Source of the DNA: Anaerovoracaceae bacterium
GTDB lineage: Bacteria; Bacillota; Clostridia; Peptostreptococcales; Anaerovoracaceae
Direction: 5' to 3'
Assembly (NCBI GenBank): GCA_963678385.1
Contig: OY782829.1
Coordinates: 781,397 to 845,396, forward strand
Length of the DNA: 64,000 nt
This document shows, piece by piece, positions 46,698 to 54,701 of this stretch (positions within the stretch are counted from its first letter, which is position 1; the number at the start of each line of letters is the position of its first letter). The notes under the pieces were generated by a model. It ran no database searches, was not told the origin of the DNA, and saw nothing but the letters and a program-made list of their open reading frames with translations. The position numbers were made by a program, and so were the translations under genes.

Positions 46698-47804
46698 TTA
46701 TTCGAAGGGGAATCTATGCTTTAGCCCCAGTGCGTTGCGCACCTCGATGAATTCCTTCTGGACGGCTTCTCCAACGGGAACGCCCTTGTCCTTTCTTTCC
46801 AGCCAGGTGAGATATTCCTTCTCGCCAGCCGTGTAGATCCTGTTTTCTCCCGGAGCCAACGTGGATGCCCGCAGCTCTCTGAGGATATCTCCGGTGGTTT
46901 TCTTGAAACTCTCAGCTCCCAGAAAGGCCTCCGTGTCGATGGCAATAAAGAAGTGTCCTAGATGGTAAGGCACTTTTTCTCCGTGTTCACCCAGGCCCGT
47001 GAGCATTTTCATGTAGCTGCCCGCCTGCAGTGCCGCAGACAGGATCTCAACCACAGCGGCATAACCGTACCCCTTGTATCCGCCAAGCTCTTCGCCGATG
47101 CCGCCCAAAGGCGCCAGCGCCGCTTTTTCCTTTACGAGGTCGTCGAGAATCTGCACGCTGTCGGTCATGGCCTTTCCGTCATGTCCGATGACCATACCTG
47201 CCGGCGTATCCTTGCCTACCCGCGCATAATATTCGATCTTGCCACGCTGGGTGATGCTTGTTGCGCAATCCAGCATGAAGGGGAATTCCTCATCGGTGGG
47301 GATTCCGAAGGTCAGCGGATTGGTGCCCATCATGTTTTCCACTCCAAAGGTGGGCGCGATGGAAGGACGCGCGTTGGTTCCCGTGATCCCGATCATGTTT
47401 TCCTTTACCGCCATGGATGCATAATAGCCGGCAATGCCGTAATGGGTAGAATTTCTGGCGGCCACCATGCCCATGCCGTATTTCTTGGCCTTTTCGATGG
47501 CCATGGTCATGGCCTTGTGGCCGACGATCATTCCCATGCCGTCGTGGCCGTCCACAACAGCCGTTGTCGGCGTTTCTTTCAGGATTTCAAATTCGGTAAC
47601 AGGTTTCTGGATACCTGCGTTGATACGGTCGATATAGATCGGCTTGAAGCGGTTGCAGCCGTGGCTTTCGATTCCGCGTCTGTCGCTTTCCATCAGAACG
47701 TCGGCGCAGATCGCGGCCTCGCCTGCCGGTACGCCGATTTTCTCAAACGCCGCCGTCATAAAATCTCCGATCAGTTCCCATGATACATAAGGTCTGTTCT
47801 CCAT
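46698..47804 (-). CDS. Ldh_2 (type 2 malate/L-lactate dehydrogenase) family oxidoreductase
   Basis: GIESHG, RNSTHYG, GTNPL, LDCATS, GGYKGYG, GHFFIAID. Confidence 0.9.
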   Translation of the reverse strand: MENRPYVSWELIGDFMTAAFEKIGVPAGEAAICADVLMESDRRGIESHGCNRFKPIYIDRINAGIQKPVTEFEILKETPTTAVVDGHDGMGMIVGHKAMTMAIEKAKKYGMGMVAARNSTHYGIAGYYASMAVKENMIGITGTNARPSIAPTFGVENMMGTNPLTFGIPTDEEFPFMLDCATSITQRGKIEYYARVGKDTPAGMVIGHDGKAMTDSVQILDDLVKEKAALAPLGGIGEELGGYKGYGYAAVVEILSAALQAGSYMKMLTGLGEHGEKVPYHLGHFFIAIDTEAFLGAESFKKTTGDILRELRASTLAPGENRIYTAGEKEYLTWLERKDKGVPVGEAVQKEFIEVRNALGLKHRFPFE

Positions 47805-48172: not shown

Positions 48173-48299
48173 CCTATTATTGTCCACTGCTTCCATTATA
48201 CTGGCAGATAATGGGGAAAGTAAATATTTTTTCGAACCTGACATACAGTTGTCAGGTTCGGGGTGTTATAAATCAATCAAAAACAAAAGGAGGGAAATT

Positions 48300-48758
48300 A
48301 TGGGATATCAGTTTGAATTGACCGATGAAAGGGAACAGCCGGTGCTTTCCGTGCGGATAAGGACTGCGGTGGGGAATCTGCCGCAGGAGTTCGGAAGGAT
48401 CTACGGAGCGATCCTGCAGTATCTTGGGGAAATCGGTGAAACAACGGAGGGACCGGCCTTCGGGGCGTACTACAATATGGATATGGAAGACCTTGATGTG
48501 GAAATCGGCTTTATCATGCCAAAGGCGATCCAGGGGAATGGCGATGTTCAGGCGGGCAGCATTCCGGCAGGCAAACAGGCGTCCTGCATGTACAAAGGGG
48601 CTTACGACGACATGGCGCCGGTTTATAACGCCATGATGGAATGGATTGCGGAAAAGGGTCTGGAACCTACCGGCGTCAGCTATGAGTTTTACTACAACTC
48701 CCCTGCGGAAGTTCCGGTAAGTGAGCTGCTGACGAAAATTGTATTTCCGTTGAAGTAA
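48300..48758 (+). CDS. GyrI-like small-molecule-binding domain protein
   Basis: GPAFGAYYNMDMEDLDVEIGF, YKGAYD, YEFYYNSP; start at ATG 48300 behind AGGAGG. Confidence 0.85.
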   Translation: MGYQFELTDEREQPVLSVRIRTAVGNLPQEFGRIYGAILQYLGEIGETTEGPAFGAYYNMDMEDLDVEIGFIMPKAIQGNGDVQAGSIPAGKQASCMYKGAYDDMAPVYNAMMEWIAEKGLEPTGVSYEFYYNSPAEVPVSELLTKIVFPLK

Positions 48759-48793: not shown

Positions 48794-49723
48794 ATGGATG
48801 TTTTGGAATGGCTGCTGGAACCGGACGATCCTTCGGTGCGTTACAGAACTCTTGTTGAGCTGTTGGACAAGGGCGGAAGGTCGGAAGCAGAGGAAGCGAG
48901 AAAAACAATCGCCGATTCTGAGCCGGTAAAAAAACTGATGGAGACGATGCATCCCGACGGTTACTGGCTGCAGAAGGATTATAAGGGCAGAAACTTAGGC
49001 ATGGATGTTGAGTACGGCAGCTTTGCTACAACTCATTTTTGCCTGGCTTACTGTGCGGAGCTGGGTTTGGATCGCAGCTACTCCTTTGTAGACAAGGCGG
49101 CTAAGCGGTATCTCGGACTGCAGAAAGAGGACGGGGACTGGTGGGAGCATCTCTCCTGTCTGTACGGATACAACCTCAGAACTTTCATTCTGCTTGGCTA
49201 TCGGGATGATAAGCGGGTCGGGAAAGCCATTGATTTGATGCTGCAGACAACCAGACCGGACGGCGGATATCTGTGCGGCCTGCATGAAAAAAGAAAAGGG
49301 AAACCGGAGAAAAGCTGCGTCCGGGGGGCAGCTAAAGCTCTCCTCGCTTTTGCCGAGCTGCCGGAATATTGGAACCATGAGAGGTGCCTGCAGTTGGTCG
49401 ATTACTTTATGAACCGGAACGGGATTTTCCGAAACGGTGATCACCAAAGCTTCGTCAACAAAGATATGATTTCGGATTCCTTCCCCATTATCTGGAGAAC
49501 GAATGTCTGGGAGATCCTTTACGGGCTTTCGAAAATGGGTTACGGAAAAGATGAACGGCTTGCCGATGCCTGGAAGGTGATGGAGAGCAGAAAAGACGCC
49601 GACGGCAGATATGTCCTTGACTGGACGCCGGCACAGAGCCCTTGGAAGGCCGGAATGCGGGGAGAGCCGAGCAAATGGATCACCCTGTACTGTATGCTGG
49701 CTGAAAAATATCGCGATAATTAA
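48794..49723 (+). CDS. Hypothetical alpha-alpha barrel (prenyltransferase/squalene-cyclase-like repeats)
   Basis: WLLEPDDPSVRYRTL, Q..DG.W-type repeats (HPDGYW, QKEDGDW, RPDGGY). Confidence 0.6.
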   Translation: MDVLEWLLEPDDPSVRYRTLVELLDKGGRSEAEEARKTIADSEPVKKLMETMHPDGYWLQKDYKGRNLGMDVEYGSFATTHFCLAYCAELGLDRSYSFVDKAAKRYLGLQKEDGDWWEHLSCLYGYNLRTFILLGYRDDKRVGKAIDLMLQTTRPDGGYLCGLHEKRKGKPEKSCVRGAAKALLAFAELPEYWNHERCLQLVDYFMNRNGIFRNGDHQSFVNKDMISDSFPIIWRTNVWEILYGLSKMGYGKDERLADAWKVMESRKDADGRYVLDWTPAQSPWKAGMRGEPSKWITLYCMLAEKYRDN

Positions 49724-49782
49724 GGGCTATACAGAAAGCGCCTGCCTGGGTATTCATTATCCCTGGCAGGCGCGCTTTACTT

Positions 49783-51147
49783 CTATTTCATTAATTTTCG
49801 GATCATCTTGAAATTCTTTTCCGTATACGGGTGATATCGCATCGGCAGGTCGATCCAGGTCGACTTCCGGACGATGCTCCGGTAATGGGTGAAGGTATCG
49901 AAGCTGAGCTTGCCGTGATAGCTGCCCATACCGGAATAGCCGACGCCTCCGAAGCCCATGCGCGGGTTGGCCAGGTGAATGATGGTATCGTTGATGCAGC
50001 CGCCGCCGAAGGAGCAGGAATCCAGGATACGCTTCTCGACTGCCCGGCTTTCCGTAAAGAGATAGAATGCCAGTGGCCTCGGGCGGGATCGGATGAATTT
50101 GATGCACTCGGAGAGATCGGTATAAGTAATCAGCGGCAGAATCGGTCCGAAAATCTCTTCCTGCATAATCGGAGAGTCCGGGGTAATGCCCGTCAGCACG
50201 GTGGGCTCGATAAACCGTCTCGACTCATCGATCCCTCCGCCGATCACGGCCTTCTCGCCCTTCAGCAAACGCGACACGCGCTGGAAATGCTTATCACTGA
50301 TGATAACCGGCATTTCGGACATGTCTCCGCGGGGGAAGAATTCCGTGAGTGCCTTTTTATATTCCTCCAAAAACCGGTCCTTGACGGTTTCATGGATCAG
50401 CAGATAATCGGGCTCCACGCAGGTCTGACCTGCGTTCAGCACCTTACCGAAGGCGATCCTCTTCGCGGCCAGCTTCAGGTTTGCCGTTTCGTCAACGATG
50501 ACGGGGCTTTTTCCGCCGAGTTCCAGAGTGACAGGAGTCAGGTGCTTCGCCGCCGCTTCCATGACAACCTTTCCGACCTCAACGCTGCCGGTGAAGAAGA
50601 TATAGTCGAAGGCCTCCTCCAGGAGCGCGTTGTTCTGCTCCCTGCCGCCCTCTATTACAGTAAGGTATTCGGGCGGAAAGGTATCGCCGATGATTTTGGC
50701 GATGGCGGCGCTTGTGGCAGGGGCGTAGGCCGAGGGCTTTATGACGGCGCAGTTTCCGCCGGAGATCGCGCCGACGACCGGCTCAAGACAGAGCTGGAGC
50801 GGATAGTTCCAGGGCGACATGATCAGAGCCACGCCGAAAGGCTCCGGTACGACGAAGCTCTTTGCATGGAACTGTGTAATGGGCGTGCGAACATTTTTTG
50901 TTCGGATCCAGCGGGGCAGGTGCTTCAGATGAAAGCGGATCTCGTCCAATACCATTCCGGTCTCGGTCATATATGACTCGAAAGGGGATTTGTTCAGATC
51001 GGACTTCATCGCTTTTGCAATGAGATCTTCATTGCTCTGCAGGGATTTTTGGAGCTTACGGAGAGCTTCCGTCCGGAAAGCCAGCGGCCGCGTCGCTCCG
51101 CTTTGAAAATACTCGCGCTGACGCGCGATCAAGGAGTCAAAATTCAT
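49783..51147 (-). CDS. Aldehyde dehydrogenase, class-3/fatty ALDH-like
   Basis: PWNYP, IFFTGS, TLELGGKSP, NAGQTCV.PD, EEIFGP. Confidence 0.92.
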   Translation of the reverse strand: MNFDSLIARQREYFQSGATRPLAFRTEALRKLQKSLQSNEDLIAKAMKSDLNKSPFESYMTETGMVLDEIRFHLKHLPRWIRTKNVRTPITQFHAKSFVVPEPFGVALIMSPWNYPLQLCLEPVVGAISGGNCAVIKPSAYAPATSAAIAKIIGDTFPPEYLTVIEGGREQNNALLEEAFDYIFFTGSVEVGKVVMEAAAKHLTPVTLELGGKSPVIVDETANLKLAAKRIAFGKVLNAGQTCVEPDYLLIHETVKDRFLEEYKKALTEFFPRGDMSEMPVIISDKHFQRVSRLLKGEKAVIGGGIDESRRFIEPTVLTGITPDSPIMQEEIFGPILPLITYTDLSECIKFIRSRPRPLAFYLFTESRAVEKRILDSCSFGGGCINDTIIHLANPRMGFGGVGYSGMGSYHGKLSFDTFTHYRSIVRKSTWIDLPMRYHPYTEKNFKMIRKLMK

Positions 51148-51188
51148 GATATTCCTCCGTTAAGGTTGTTCCTGTCGGCAGCTGATTT

Positions 51189-51980
51189 CTAAGTCAGCAT
51201 GCCCTGAAGAACCGCCATATAGTCGTTGAGATAGCAGGCGTATTCGGGGCTTCCGATCGTTTCCACGTAGCCCTTTTCCACGGCTTCCACAAATTCTACG
51301 TCCTTGAGCAGCACCGCCATGGCGCCCTCGACGCTGAGGAAACGGAAATGGACGAAGGGGCTTCGGCGGGTATATACGCCGTGTCCTGATTTTGATTTTC
51401 CCGCCTTGATGCGGAGGTAGCAGGCGATAAACGCGCTATCATCGCCGTTCTCGACGGTGAACTGATAGATCCGGTCCGGCTGCCGCTGGCAGAACTCCTG
51501 CATGCTTGGGTCTCCCAGCTTGTTGTACTGGGAGAGGGCGCGGGTGATCATGTATAAACTCATTTTAACCTTGAGGCTCTTTCCTGTAAAGTCCTTTGGC
51601 CGCTTGGAGGGCGACATGATCGTCAATCCCATCAGCAGCGCGAGCACTTTTGTGAGGAGGCCGAAGTTTTTCAGCCCCTTGACAGAGGGCATGGCCAAAC
51701 CGCCCTTCAACAGGGCGTTCATTTTTTGGACAGAAGGGAAGGTCAAAGAGATATCCGGATTTGCCACCGGCCCCTGAAAGACGGTAACCGTACCGTGATC
51801 GAAAACGAGGTGGCAGGCAAGGAGTTCGCCGTCGTTCTTCGCGCCAAACTGAACGACGCCGGCGACGTCTTTGAACTTTTCTTTTATTTTCGGATCGTCA
51901 TCCAGAAGAACCTGCATGACGGGAAAGGCCGCGTTGAAAAACAGCTTTGCGGTCATGATATCCTGAGGCGTTGCAGACAT
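51189..51980 (-). CDS. Hypothetical protein with two putative SCP2/sterol-carrier-like domains
   Basis: Two repeats of QF...(A)C.L....G......G....P.....F....M..LL.G/K pattern; fold assignment by eye. Confidence 0.55.
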   Translation of the reverse strand: MSATPQDIMTAKLFFNAAFPVMQVLLDDDPKIKEKFKDVAGVVQFGAKNDGELLACHLVFDHGTVTVFQGPVANPDISLTFPSVQKMNALLKGGLAMPSVKGLKNFGLLTKVLALLMGLTIMSPSKRPKDFTGKSLKVKMSLYMITRALSQYNKLGDPSMQEFCQRQPDRIYQFTVENGDDSAFIACYLRIKAGKSKSGHGVYTRRSPFVHFRFLSVEGAMAVLLKDVEFVEAVEKGYVETIGSPEYACYLNDYMAVLQGMLT

Positions 51981-51995
51981 TATAATCCCCCTCCT

Positions 51996-53009
51996 TTACT
52001 CGTCATCCCAGTTTTCATCTTCTTCAAATTCCAGCCCGACCATGCCGCGGACCTGGTCGATGATGCCGTTGGCGTCAAGCCCGTAGTGGGCGTACAGGTC
52101 TTCCGCGTAGCCGATGGTTGAAAACTCGTCATAGATCCCATGCTTTTTAAAGACGCAGCCCTTACCGCTTTCGGCGATGACACAGCCGACGGCGTCTCCA
52201 AGACCGCCGATAACGTTATGCTCCTCAATGGTGAGAATACGGCGGGTATCGGTCACTGCTTTCAGGATCGCTTCCCGGTCGATGGGCTTGATGGTATGCA
52301 TATTGATGACGCGGACGGAAAGACCGTCCTGTTCCGACAGCGTTTTCGCCGCCTGAACGGCCTGCAGCACCGCAATGCCGCAACAGATGATGGTAAAGTC
52401 GGTGCCTTCCCGCATGGTGATGGCCTTGCCTATTTCAAAATCATAATGATCGTTCTCGTAGCATGGCGGTTCGAAGCCCCGGCCGATACGGATATAGACC
52501 GGACCCGGCGTTTCAACACAGGCCTGAACTGCCTTGGAGGTCTCGATTCCGTCGGCGGGACAAATCACTGTCATGTTGGCGATGGAACGCATGACGGCGA
52601 AGTCTTCCGTACAGTGGTGCGTCGTTCCGGCGTGGCCGAAGGAAATCCCGGCATGCGTCGCAATGATCTTCACCGGCAGGTTCTGATATGCAATGTCGGT
52701 TCGGACCTGTTCGCCGCCTCTCAGGCAGGAGAAAACTGCCATGGTGGAAGCAAAGGGGATCAGCCCGGCCTTTGCAAGCCCGGCTGCAATTCCGAACATG
52801 TTCTGCTCAGCGATGCCTACGTTGAAAAACCGGTCGGGAAACGCATTTGCAAAGTGCACGATGGCAGTGGTCTTCGCTAGGTCTGCGGTGACTCCGACGA
52901 TCTTATCGTTCTGTTTGCCCAGCTCCGCAAGGGTCCGGCCGTAGATCTCCTTGGCGGACATGGTGGCGGCGTCGTAGGCGTTCCAGTTGGTTCCGGTTAC
53001 TACTGTCAT
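51996..53009 (-). CDS. Transketolase-like, C-terminal (pyrimidine-binding + C) subunit
   Basis: ADLAKT, NVGIAEQNM, GTTHHCTED, GPVYIR, TIKPID, EEHNVIGGLG. Confidence 0.92.
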   Translation of the reverse strand: MTVVTGTNWNAYDAATMSAKEIYGRTLAELGKQNDKIVGVTADLAKTTAIVHFANAFPDRFFNVGIAEQNMFGIAAGLAKAGLIPFASTMAVFSCLRGGEQVRTDIAYQNLPVKIIATHAGISFGHAGTTHHCTEDFAVMRSIANMTVICPADGIETSKAVQACVETPGPVYIRIGRGFEPPCYENDHYDFEIGKAITMREGTDFTIICCGIAVLQAVQAAKTLSEQDGLSVRVINMHTIKPIDREAILKAVTDTRRILTIEEHNVIGGLGDAVGCVIAESGKGCVFKKHGIYDEFSTIGYAEDLYAHYGLDANGIIDQVRGMVGLEFEEDENWDDE

Positions 53010-53022
53010 AGTTCACACCCCC

Positions 53023-53853
53023 TTAACCTTTCATGATGGAAGCCTTGGCCTTCTCGCATACAGCCGAGTCGCCGGAGGCATAGTGGTATACAACGTTGTT
53101 TTCCATAAAATCGATGCCCTTGCCCTTTACCGTATTGGCGAGGATCAGAACGGGTTTCTCTTCCGCCGACCAAGCCTTGTCAAAGGCGAAGGCCAGTTGG
53201 TCGAAATCGTGACCGTTGATCTCGATTACTTCAAAGCCAAAGGCGCGCCATTTTTCAGCAAAAGGTTCCAGCTTCATGATATCTTCGGTAAATCCGTCGA
53301 TCATCAGTCCGTTGCGGTCGACGACGGTAATCACGTTGGTGAGCTTAAAGTTGGAAAGGGCCATGGCGGCTTCCCAAACGCTGCCTTCGCAGCATTCGCC
53401 GTCCCCCATTAGGCAGACTGTTTTGTAGGTCTTGCCGAGATAGCGGGAGCCGAGCCCAAGTCCCACAGCCATAGAAAGCCCGTGGCCGAGCGAACCGGTC
53501 GAGGCGTCACAGCCGATCACCTTGTTGCAGTCCGGATGCATGGCGAAGGGACTGCCGAAATGGTTAAAGGATTTCAGCTGCTCTTCCGGGAAAAAGCCTC
53601 TCTTGGCAAGGGCCGGTATGTAACCTGCGGCGCAGTGGCCTTTTGAAAGGATGAAACGATCCCGGTCGTCCCATTTCGGGTTTTCGGGATCCACGTTGAG
53701 ATACTTGAAATAAAGGATCGTGAGGATGTCGGCAATACTCAGGGAACCGCCGATGTGGGCGCCGCCGGACCATGCCATGACGTCTACGATGGTCAACCGC
53801 AGTTCGCGCGCCATTTCAAGCAGCATATTCTTTTCATTTTGGGTGAGTGGCAT
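53023..53853 (-). CDS. Transketolase-like, N-terminal TPP-binding subunit
   Basis: HIGGSLS, RDRFILSKGH, STGSLGHG, GDGE...EGSVWEA...VDRN, TVKGKG. Confidence 0.92.
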   Translation of the reverse strand: MPLTQNEKNMLLEMARELRLTIVDVMAWSGGAHIGGSLSIADILTILYFKYLNVDPENPKWDDRDRFILSKGHCAAGYIPALAKRGFFPEEQLKSFNHFGSPFAMHPDCNKVIGCDASTGSLGHGLSMAVGLGLGSRYLGKTYKTVCLMGDGECCEGSVWEAAMALSNFKLTNVITVVDRNGLMIDGFTEDIMKLEPFAEKWRAFGFEVIEINGHDFDQLAFAFDKAWSAEEKPVLILANTVKGKGIDFMENNVVYHYASGDSAVCEKAKASIMKG

Positions 53854-54086
53854 TATGTACTCCTCCTTATATACGAATTATCAATGTCGGGCGGGTTGAA
53901 AAGCGACGAATTGAGCCGCTTTTACTCTACTATAAATATAGAATTGCGCTATCTTTTAGTCTAGTAAAAAACGGAACTCATGCCGTTCAAATCGGCAGGG
54001 AATATGACAGGCAGCTGTCATGTTTCTGTGATATAATGACGATGTTACATGATATACTATTTCCAATAGGGGAAGGGGAGTTTTGG

Positions 54087-54701
54087 ATGTTCATAAATAC
54101 AAAAGATTATTTATTGAATTTCATGAAGGGGCAGAATCTTCCGGCGGAAGGGGTTCAATTGCCGGAAGCGGTTATCGATCCGGACCTTATTCAGGTAGTT
54201 ATGATCAGCGAGGCGCCGCCTCATGACTCGAACGACTATTTTTACAGCAGGGCCGAGAACGCCGACAGTATGAAAACGACATTGCCGCTGTTTCAGAACG
54301 CCGGGGTTAGTGTAAAAGGAATCGACGATATCCTGCAATTAGGAATCTATATAACAACTGCAGTAAAAACCCCAAAGTCCGGATATGACGTTGATCCGGA
54401 AAAGCTTAGGGAGCATCTGCCGGTATTGGAGCATGAAATAGAGATGCTCCCGAATGTCAAAGTCATAATGCTGATGGGAGACGTTGCGAAGAAAGCATTT
54501 AACATGATAGCGAAAAACAGGACTAGGAAAAATGCGATTCCGTCCGGCTCCACCTACAAAATCCGTAATGACGAGTTTTATTACGGAAAGGTTCGCGTTT
54601 TTCCGTCTTACATTATGACCGGCGGAAATATTTTGATCGAAAAATCAAAATGTGCGATGATCTCGGATGATATCAGACGTATGATGGAGTATCTAAAATA
54701 A
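54087..54701 (+). CDS. Uracil-DNA glycosylase superfamily protein
   Basis: MISEAPP motif, YITTAVK, IMLMGDVA; start at ATG 54087 behind GGGGAG. Confidence 0.7.
   Translation: MFINTKDYLLNFMKGQNLPAEGVQLPEAVIDPDLIQVVMISEAPPHDSNDYFYSRAENADSMKTTLPLFQNAGVSVKGIDDILQLGIYITTAVKTPKSGYDVDPEKLREHLPVLEHEIEMLPNVKVIMLMGDVAKKAFNMIAKNRTRKNAIPSGSTYKIRNDEFYYGKVRVFPSYIMTGGNILIEKSKCAMISDDIRRMMEYLK

Follow-up and report, generated by a model that had tools for sequence, protein, structure and literature searches.

A transketolase, tandem SCP2 and class-3 aldehyde dehydrogenase operon in an Anaerovoracaceae bacterium: a candidate system for cleaving hydrophobic ketols

A four-gene operon of an Anaerovoracaceae bacterium (GenBank assembly GCA_963678385.1) encodes a split transketolase (TK) of a discrete clade, a tandem SCP2-fold protein (X) and a class-3 aldehyde dehydrogenase (ALDH). 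It lies within positions 781,397 to 845,396 of contig OY782829.1, a stretch of 64,000 nucleotides referred to here as the window, whose numbering is used for the features below. We propose that the operon supplies the later steps in the catabolism of a hydrophobic 2-substituted 1,3-diol; in this genome the likeliest substrate is a sphingoid-base-like 2-amino-1,3-diol with a long chain. Judged from sequence, the chances that this proposal is right are about evenly balanced. The route would begin with unlinked genes, a FumI-like aminotransferase and X', a paralogue of X, which would together move the C2 amino group to pyruvate and leave the ketol HOCH2-CO-CHOH-R. The sequence anatomy of the split TK suggests that it would cut this ketol between C2 and C3, releasing R-CHO without an alpha-hydroxyl; the C2 unit would be held on thiamine pyrophosphate (TPP) and then handed to an acceptor or freed as glycolaldehyde. 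X would probably deliver the greasy ketol to the TK or remove the greasy aldehyde, and the ALDH, going by its family, would oxidize the aldehyde to the acid. The proposal builds on the gene order, folds, clade structure, residue changes and co-occurrence observed for the following genes.

53023..53853, minus strand: N-terminal (TPP-binding) subunit of the split TK (TKN), 276 aa; Pfam Transketolase_N, 1.8e-43; Shine-Dalgarno sequence AAGGAGG
51996..53009, minus strand: C-terminal (pyrimidine/substrate-binding) subunit of the split TK (TKC), 337 aa, a clade-specific variant; Pfam Transket_pyr, 2.2e-40, and Transketolase_C, 7.6e-27
51189..51980, minus strand: tandem SCP2-fold protein X, 263 aa, constant partner of the TK clade; marginal Pfam SCP2 match, AlphaFold2 model and Foldseek
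49783..51147, minus strand: class-3 ALDH, 454 aa; Pfam Aldedh, 4e-88; catalytic motifs

An open reading frame (ORF) check of the window placed these four minus-strand genes at exactly the positions given by an earlier, sequence-only reading of this DNA. They are separated by gaps of 13, 15 and 41 nt, and a Shine-Dalgarno sequence precedes every one of the four start codons, confirming that they form a real operon. ORF and Pfam annotation found no sugar kinase, epimerase or transporter among them, which bears out the earlier description of four co-directional, tightly spaced genes free of such functions. None of the operon proteins scored above any curated NCBIfam cut-off. The G+C content is ~54% over the operon (50001-54000) against roughly 47-51% in the adjoining 2-kb bins, which agrees with the horizontal transfer that the TK tree described below points to.

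Among solved structures both TK subunits are closest to the split TK of Carboxydothermus hydrogenoformans (TKN to its N chain, 6YAK, 5e-79; TKC to 6YAJ, 1.3e-80), with which they share the common two-gene split, the domains, and the TPP-binding and catalytic residues. No other split TK came up in the PDB search. Aligned with the human and C. hydrogenoformans enzymes, TKN keeps GDGE (of the GDG...N TPP/metal motif), SKGH, MHPD and the C-terminal His, and TKC keeps both IAEQN, which carries the cofactor-activating Glu, and His119. As the TPP-binding and catalytic residues are all kept, the enzyme should still cleave a 1-hydroxy-2-keto-3-hydroxy unit. In contrast to the C. hydrogenoformans protein, the window TKC reads GHAG for GEDG, carries N- and C-terminal extensions and has an obligatory SCP2 partner gene. 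Both extensions are conserved, and the C-terminal one is an acidic tail that reads EEDENWDDE in the window and EEDxNWDDE in all members.

Where canonical TKs read GEDGxxHQ, 63 orthologues share SFGHAGTTHH without exception. In canonical TKs the Asp of GEDG (D469 in E. coli, D477 in yeast, D424 in human) holds the hydroxyl that a sugar substrate carries beside its aldehyde carbon; it is replaced by Ala127 in the window and by Ala in 63/63 orthologues. Two distant clade members read GQAG and GAAG at this site. By analogy with canonical TKs, the retained histidines argue for a true 1-hydroxy ketol and the lost Asp for an aldehyde that lacks an alpha-hydroxyl. Of the four positions that bind phosphate (human R318, S345, H416 and R474), three are kept, as Thr/Ser47 (Thr47 in the window), His119 and Arg177. 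The fourth, at position 20, varies: the window has Lys, 59/63 orthologues have Arg, and distant members have Ala or Gly.

X is present in 4 of 300 sampled genomes of the same class, the window's genome included (~1%). The same four genomes, and no others, have a TKC that is at least 58% identical along its entire length; all other TKCs reach at most 53%. Of these others, the eight best matches all show the canonical GEDG and lack the acidic tail. In a maximum-likelihood tree a 100/100 branch separates the X-linked TKCs from all others, and within their clade Spirochaetota and Bacillota are intermixed, suggesting horizontal transfer. We conclude from sequence that the window TK is not the housekeeping enzyme but belongs to a discrete clade. 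Its branch of its own and its altered substrate residues uphold the prediction that the subunits stand apart from housekeeping split TKs. Two further, very divergent split TK-like pairs lie next to each other in the same genome (G000:C1:514150-515912 and 516944-518606). Both are without several canonical TK motifs, and the match to the N-subunit of the first holds one in-frame TGA. These paralogues were omitted from the tree, in which they produced long-branch artefacts when included.

The third gene encodes a protein with only a marginal Pfam SCP2 match (22.4 bits against a cut-off of 21.3), confined to residues 25-83 of 263 in its N-terminal half. The AlphaFold2 model of X has a pLDDT of 94.4 (32 homologues in the alignment), and the order of helices and strands occurs in it twice. 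Every significant Foldseek match in the PDB was an SCP2 fold: the SCP2 domain of alkylsulfatase, SCP2, the SCP-2L domain of MFE-2, and UbiJ. When the C-terminal half was modelled alone (pLDDT 91.5), Foldseek returned SCP2 proteins only, with target-normalized TM-scores of up to 0.72; for the halves of X these scores range from 0.5 to 0.72. BLASTP of one half against the other detected no similarity, so it is the structure that identifies X as a tandem. The models thus indicate that X is a double SCP2 fold, one per half, and the earlier call of a tandem SCP2-like protein holds for the whole of X as well as for its C-terminal half. Each half shares its fold with SCP2, MFE-2 SCP-2L, UbiJ and the C-terminal domain of alkylsulfatase, but X differs from all of these as a stand-alone tandem duplication of 263 aa with halves dissimilar in sequence. 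In alkylsulfatases and UbiJ, the SCP2 domain assists an enzyme whose substrate is hydrophobic.

A large protein collection contained 563 relatives of X, none with a name, in 173 clusters at 50% identity. They are encoded in at least 157 species representatives, mostly Clostridia and Spirochaetes from gut, rumen, digester and termite gut. The sequence is very strongly conserved, with 60-97% identity across two phyla. ORFs were called and clustered in 80 related loci, and the counts given here are for the 37 of them in which each flank spans 4.5 kb or more. X follows TKC in 74-77 of the 80 loci, that is, wherever the contig allows, and in 37/37 of those with full flanks. The other recurrent genes are as follows.

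TKN and TKC: 37/37 loci
403-aa Zn-dehydrogenase: 30/37 loci
386-aa MerR-like protein: 24/37 loci
ALDH: 21/37 loci
X' directly followed by a class-III aminotransferase: 11/37 loci
Alanine dehydrogenase: 6/37 loci

Full eight-gene clusters, X'-aminotransferase-TKN-TKC-X-dehydrogenase-MerR-ALDH, occur in loci L017 and L019. In a distant genome, where the identity of X falls to 32%, the genes form one contiguous operon, X'-aminotransferase-TKN-TKC-X. The cultured Sinanaerobacter chloroacetimidivorans BAD-6 (locus L006) has the order TKN-TKC-X-Zn-dehydrogenase-ALDH. The dehydrogenase is the only front end in 25 of the 37 loci and the aminotransferase in 6; both are present in 5 and neither in 1. 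Almost all TK-X cores are thus paired with a Zn-dehydrogenase or an aminotransferase, two largely complementary partners. Regulators near the related loci are of MerR, TetR and AraC types. No transporter is conserved in these loci, which fits a membrane-permeant substrate. The 386-aa MerR-like protein (L037:4562-5722 and 37 other loci) combines a MerR-type DNA-binding head with a C-terminal part of ~300 aa without a known domain. Its gene stands between those for the Zn-dehydrogenase and the ALDH in 24/37 loci, and the protein may be a sensor for the pathway substrate. Neighbour clusters c41, c48, c49, c55, c57, c58, c71, c74, c78, c79 and c82 were uninformative, each being present in no more than 4 closely related loci.

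The constancy of this context bears on one alternative, an ordinary or spare sugar-phosphate TK that lies beside unrelated genes by chance. Such an enzyme would account for the retention of all TPP-binding and catalytic residues and most phosphate-binding ones, and the best solved relative is indeed a functional split TK. We nevertheless regard it as very improbable. A canonical split TK with GEDG is encoded elsewhere in the genome, as is DXS, and the window enzyme falls in the clade that has lost the conserved Asp. The SCP2 gene follows in every fully flanked locus, and no pentose or sugar genes are conserved around the related loci. Compared by gene context, the sugar split TKs AptAB (apiose) and SqwGH (sulfo-TK) likewise differ from the window system, since their matching isomerase, kinase, glycosidase and transporter genes are absent from the operon and unconserved in the 80 loci. 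A sulfonate pathway, with a sulfo-TK, a taurine-type aminotransferase and alanine dehydrogenase, was considered and rejected, as no sulfonate genes are conserved around the related loci and the aminotransferase is FumI-like.

That aminotransferase points to an amine substrate. In the window genome X' and the aminotransferase are unlinked to the operon and lie ~600 kb away (~G000:C1:1427.3-1429.3 kb, with the aminotransferase at ~1427.3-1428.5 kb). A divergent AraC-type regulator stands beside the pair, and the aminotransferase is 73% identical to a cluster-linked one. Alanine dehydrogenase is encoded elsewhere in this genome; orthologues of the Zn-dehydrogenase and the MerR-like protein were not found in it. 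Over residues 10-413 the aminotransferase matches FumI (PDB 6HBS) with 300.7 bits, against 162.7 for the best member of the next family, glutamate-1-semialdehyde (GSA) aminomutase. FumI takes the amino group from a sphinganine-like 2-amino-3-ol, with pyruvate as its preferred co-substrate (PMC3136697), a preference that fits the alanine dehydrogenase linked in relatives. Among genomes with the TKN-TKC-X-ALDH layout, the closest also has an unlinked aminotransferase, 91% identical, and in a third no aminotransferase was found. Where the modules are split in the window genome, X stays with the TK and X' with the aminotransferase, which suggests that each carrier is dedicated to its enzyme.

The likeness to FumI, from the fumonisin cluster of Sphingopyxis sp. 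MTA144, is full-length for both the unlinked and the cluster-linked aminotransferases. FumI, however, belongs to an aerobic alphaproteobacterium and turns a 1-deoxy substrate into a methyl ketone, whereas the aminotransferase here is paired with a tandem-SCP2 protein and with a TK whose histidines suggest a 1-hydroxy ketol as the putative substrate. Hartinger 2010 yielded nothing about TPP enzymes of the fum cluster. These front-end enzymes, which define the substrate class, were missed by the earlier interpretation, both the FumI-like aminotransferase with X' and the Zn-dehydrogenase of most relatives.

The 403-aa Zn-dehydrogenase resembles threonine, butanediol, sorbitol and xylitol dehydrogenases, all secondary-alcohol enzymes. 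A parallel is offered by the Zn-dependent DesC of the desABCD operon, which interconverts the triol and ketol of the side chain cut by DesAB (PMC13348027). By this analogy, the Zn-dehydrogenase is probably a second way to the same kind of ketol, starting from a 2-hydroxyl. For loci of the Zn-dehydrogenase type we also considered an oxidation at C3, as by threonine dehydrogenase, followed by TPP-dependent cleavage of an alpha-amino ketone. This was ranked low, as we know of no precedent.

The parallel with desABCD extends to the TK itself and raises the possibility of a steroid desmolase, which would cleave glucocorticoids at their 17-hydroxy-20-keto-21-ol side chain and use the SCP2 protein as sterol carrier. 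DesAB of Clostridium scindens is likewise a split TK-family lyase; it cleaves a hydrophobic HOCH2-CO-C(OH) ketol and is encoded beside the Zn-dependent DesC (PMC12876203, PMC13348027). PMC12876203 names WP_004606448.1 and WP_004606449.1 as DesAB sequences. The TKN-TKC-X-Zn-dehydrogenase order of most relatives echoes the desABCD layout, in which DesC after DesAB resembles the dehydrogenase after the TK genes, and SCP2 folds bind sterols. Against this, corticosteroid cleavage yields a 17-ketone, leaving no aldehyde for a class-3 ALDH, and steroids offer no amine to the FumI-like aminotransferase of the window genome. The ALDH and aminotransferase that accompany the window core instead imply an aldehyde product and an amine precursor. 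DesAB operons are defined by a 20-hydroxysteroid dehydrogenase (desC or desE), usually together with desD, and no SCP2 gene is reported in them (PMC12876203). In operon content the window system, with TKN, TKC, SCP2 and ALDH only, lies outside this definition, having neither hydroxysteroid dehydrogenase nor transporter. Pfam annotation found no desC-, desE- or desD-like gene anywhere in the window, and the Zn-dehydrogenase of the relatives did not retrieve DesC (PDB 4OH1) at E <= 1e-15. DesAB operons are also rare, with 44 in 2.23 million genomes (PMC12876203), against at least 157 species representatives for the present cluster. A steroid substrate thus appears highly unlikely. Of the earlier proposal, TPP-dependent cleavage of a hydrophobic alpha-ketol to an aldehyde that is then oxidized stands as the best reading of the sequences, and its steroid option is disfavoured by the ALDH, the amine-removing front end and the missing desC-, desE- and desD-type genes.

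The ALDH is the component that speaks to the direction of the pathway. Its best PDB relatives are 6K0Z (491 bits), ALDH3A1 (414 bits) and the fatty aldehyde dehydrogenase FALDH (4QGK, ALDH3A2; 408 bits), and its catalytic motifs ELGGKSP, GQTC and EEIFGP are intact. Relatives of this class act on fatty, lipophilic and aromatic aldehydes; PDB relatives and motifs together identify it as a class-3 enzyme. Identity of the orthologues to the window ALDH, 62-88%, tracks that of X (r = 0.89), so the ALDH has been inherited with the core. The linkage is conserved in the 21 loci counted above, as had been anticipated. Co-inheritance in turn argues for aldehyde production, that is, for breakdown.

The opposite direction was also weighed. 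The TK would then join a fatty aldehyde to a C2 ketol donor, and the aminotransferase would complete a sphingoid-like amino-diol with no need for serine palmitoyltransferase. TK and aminotransferase reactions are both reversible, alanine dehydrogenase could provide the amino donor, and SCP2 carriers suit either direction. The co-inherited NAD(P)-dependent class-3 ALDH is essentially irreversible, however, and would destroy the proposed aldehyde substrate. Genes for an acyl-CoA or acyl-ACP reductase, a ceramide synthase or head-group attachment are not conserved near the related loci. The cluster is sporadic, found in ~1% of the sampled class genomes, and seemingly horizontally transferred, which is typical of accessory catabolic or detoxification modules, and the MerR, TetR and AraC types of its regulators likewise count against synthesis. 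We therefore consider a biosynthetic role quite improbable.

A second question posed by the ALDH is whether R is aliphatic. The best NCBIfam family is the benzaldehyde dehydrogenase MdlD, which the protein matches with 438 bits against a cut-off of 550, so that it is not filed as that equivalog; the benzaldehyde dehydrogenase 5UCD is also among its PDB relatives. The substrate might accordingly be an aryl 2-amino-1,3-diol or an arylglycerol, derived from lignin or phenylpropanoids or, alternatively, an amino-diol like the chloramphenicol base, with a benzaldehyde-type product oxidized to a benzoate. The cluster is common in genomes from settings rich in plant material (termite-gut Treponema, rumen, chicken gut, digesters), the polyol-type Zn-dehydrogenase front end of most relatives would suit a triol, and the Asp loss fits any aldehyde without an alpha-hydroxyl. 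Three findings point away from an aromatic substrate: the aminotransferase is by far closest to FumI, an enzyme of a long aliphatic aminopolyol; the ALDH, below the MdlD cut-off, scores higher against aliphatic or lipophilic class-3 enzymes in the PDB; and aromatic-ring catabolic genes are not conserved near the related loci. The aromatic variant is a serious one, but we judge it unlikely on this balance.

Several points also weigh against the sphingoid-type route that we favour. The C3 hydroxyl of D-erythro-sphinganine has the opposite configuration to the canonical donor preference of TKs. The ALDH is missing from 16/37 fully flanked loci, and its best NCBIfam family allows R to be aromatic. 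Among 18 searched genomes of the Zn-dehydrogenase type, with no adjacent aminotransferase, 16 had no orthologue of it anywhere; these are drafts, in which absence is unproven, yet the family as a whole would therefore not be tied to amines. The role of the Zn-dehydrogenase might instead be to reduce the aldehyde product. An SCP2 fold is in itself no proof of lipid binding by X, and the phosphate-binding positions kept in the TK may leave room for a phosphorylated or otherwise anionic substrate or acceptor.

A functional counterpart of the proposed route is the eukaryotic breakdown of sphingoid bases by sphingosine-1-phosphate lyase and ALDH3A2. There too the cut falls near the head group and a class-3 ALDH oxidizes the fatty aldehyde. 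The eukaryotic route employs a kinase and a pyridoxal phosphate (PLP)-dependent lyase and releases phosphoethanolamine, whereas transamination and TPP-dependent cleavage would take their place here; no such kinase or lyase gene is conserved near the related loci. A full-text literature search, with subscription journals mostly outside it, found no description of TK-dependent sphingoid breakdown and none of the present gene combination, in line with the earlier impression that it was undescribed.

Two candidate signals bracket the operon.

53935..53963, minus strand: sigma-70-like promoter candidate upstream of the TKN gene, TAGACT, 17 nt spacer, TATATT; consensus scan 9/12, weak evidence
49731..49773, minus strand: intrinsic-terminator-like GC-rich hairpin, GCGCCTGCC...GGCAGGCGC then the T-run TTTCTGT, directly past the ALDH stop; read from the sequence by eye

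The hairpin is absent from the output of the pattern scan, its loop probably being longer than the scan permits. The promoter candidate sits in the ~180-bp space ahead of the likely true start of a divergent gene of the UDG superfamily (53847-54701, plus strand). The listed GTG start of this ORF overlaps the TKN start by 7 nt. Its Pfam match begins only at residue 114 and in-frame Met codons lie ~190-240 nt downstream, so that the true start is probably later and the two genes would be separated by a normal divergent promoter region. On the other side, a 309-aa ORF (48794-49723, plus strand) is convergent with the ALDH gene. It has no Pfam match and a faint likeness to squalene/hopene cyclase models (E 5e-4), and it is not conserved beside the operon in related loci. 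Further along, a GyrI-like protein (48180-48758, plus strand) and an Ldh_2-family dehydrogenase (46698-47804, minus strand; best NCBIfam L-sulfolactate dehydrogenase, below cut-off) also flank the operon. Both were rejected as members of the system, since the GyrI-like gene is common only to the two nearest relatives and the Ldh_2 gene to those and the distant locus L070.

Sphingoid bases are abundant, bioactive and antimicrobial, and reach the gut from host, diet and Bacteroidota. To our knowledge, no means of their disposal by anaerobic gut bacteria has been described, the eukaryotic kinase/lyase pathway being the only well-described catabolic route. We tentatively suggest, with less than even confidence, that the TK-SCP2 core works as a lipid ketol lyase in the middle of a hitherto unknown, phosphorylation- and oxygen-free route by which anaerobes of gut, rumen and termite gut degrade or detoxify free sphingoid bases. 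Such a route, itself possible rather than probable, would take bases from host, diet and Bacteroidota through C2 transamination or dehydrogenation, TPP-dependent C2-C3 cleavage assisted by double-SCP2 chaperones, and oxidation of the fatty aldehyde. The window contributes a class-3 ALDH that is co-inherited with the core and immediately follows it, a clue to direction, together with a natural split of the two enzyme-carrier pairs, largely complementary front ends and a sequence signature of the TK clade. The Asp-to-Ala position is the one altered by enzyme engineers so that TKs accept non-hydroxylated aliphatic aldehydes, which makes the clade of interest for biocatalysis. If the proposal is correct, it would provide a concrete gene set for anaerobic sphingoid-base disposal, a second natural case, after DesAB, of a TK that has come to cleave a hydrophobic ketol, and a defined job for stand-alone bacterial double-SCP2 proteins.

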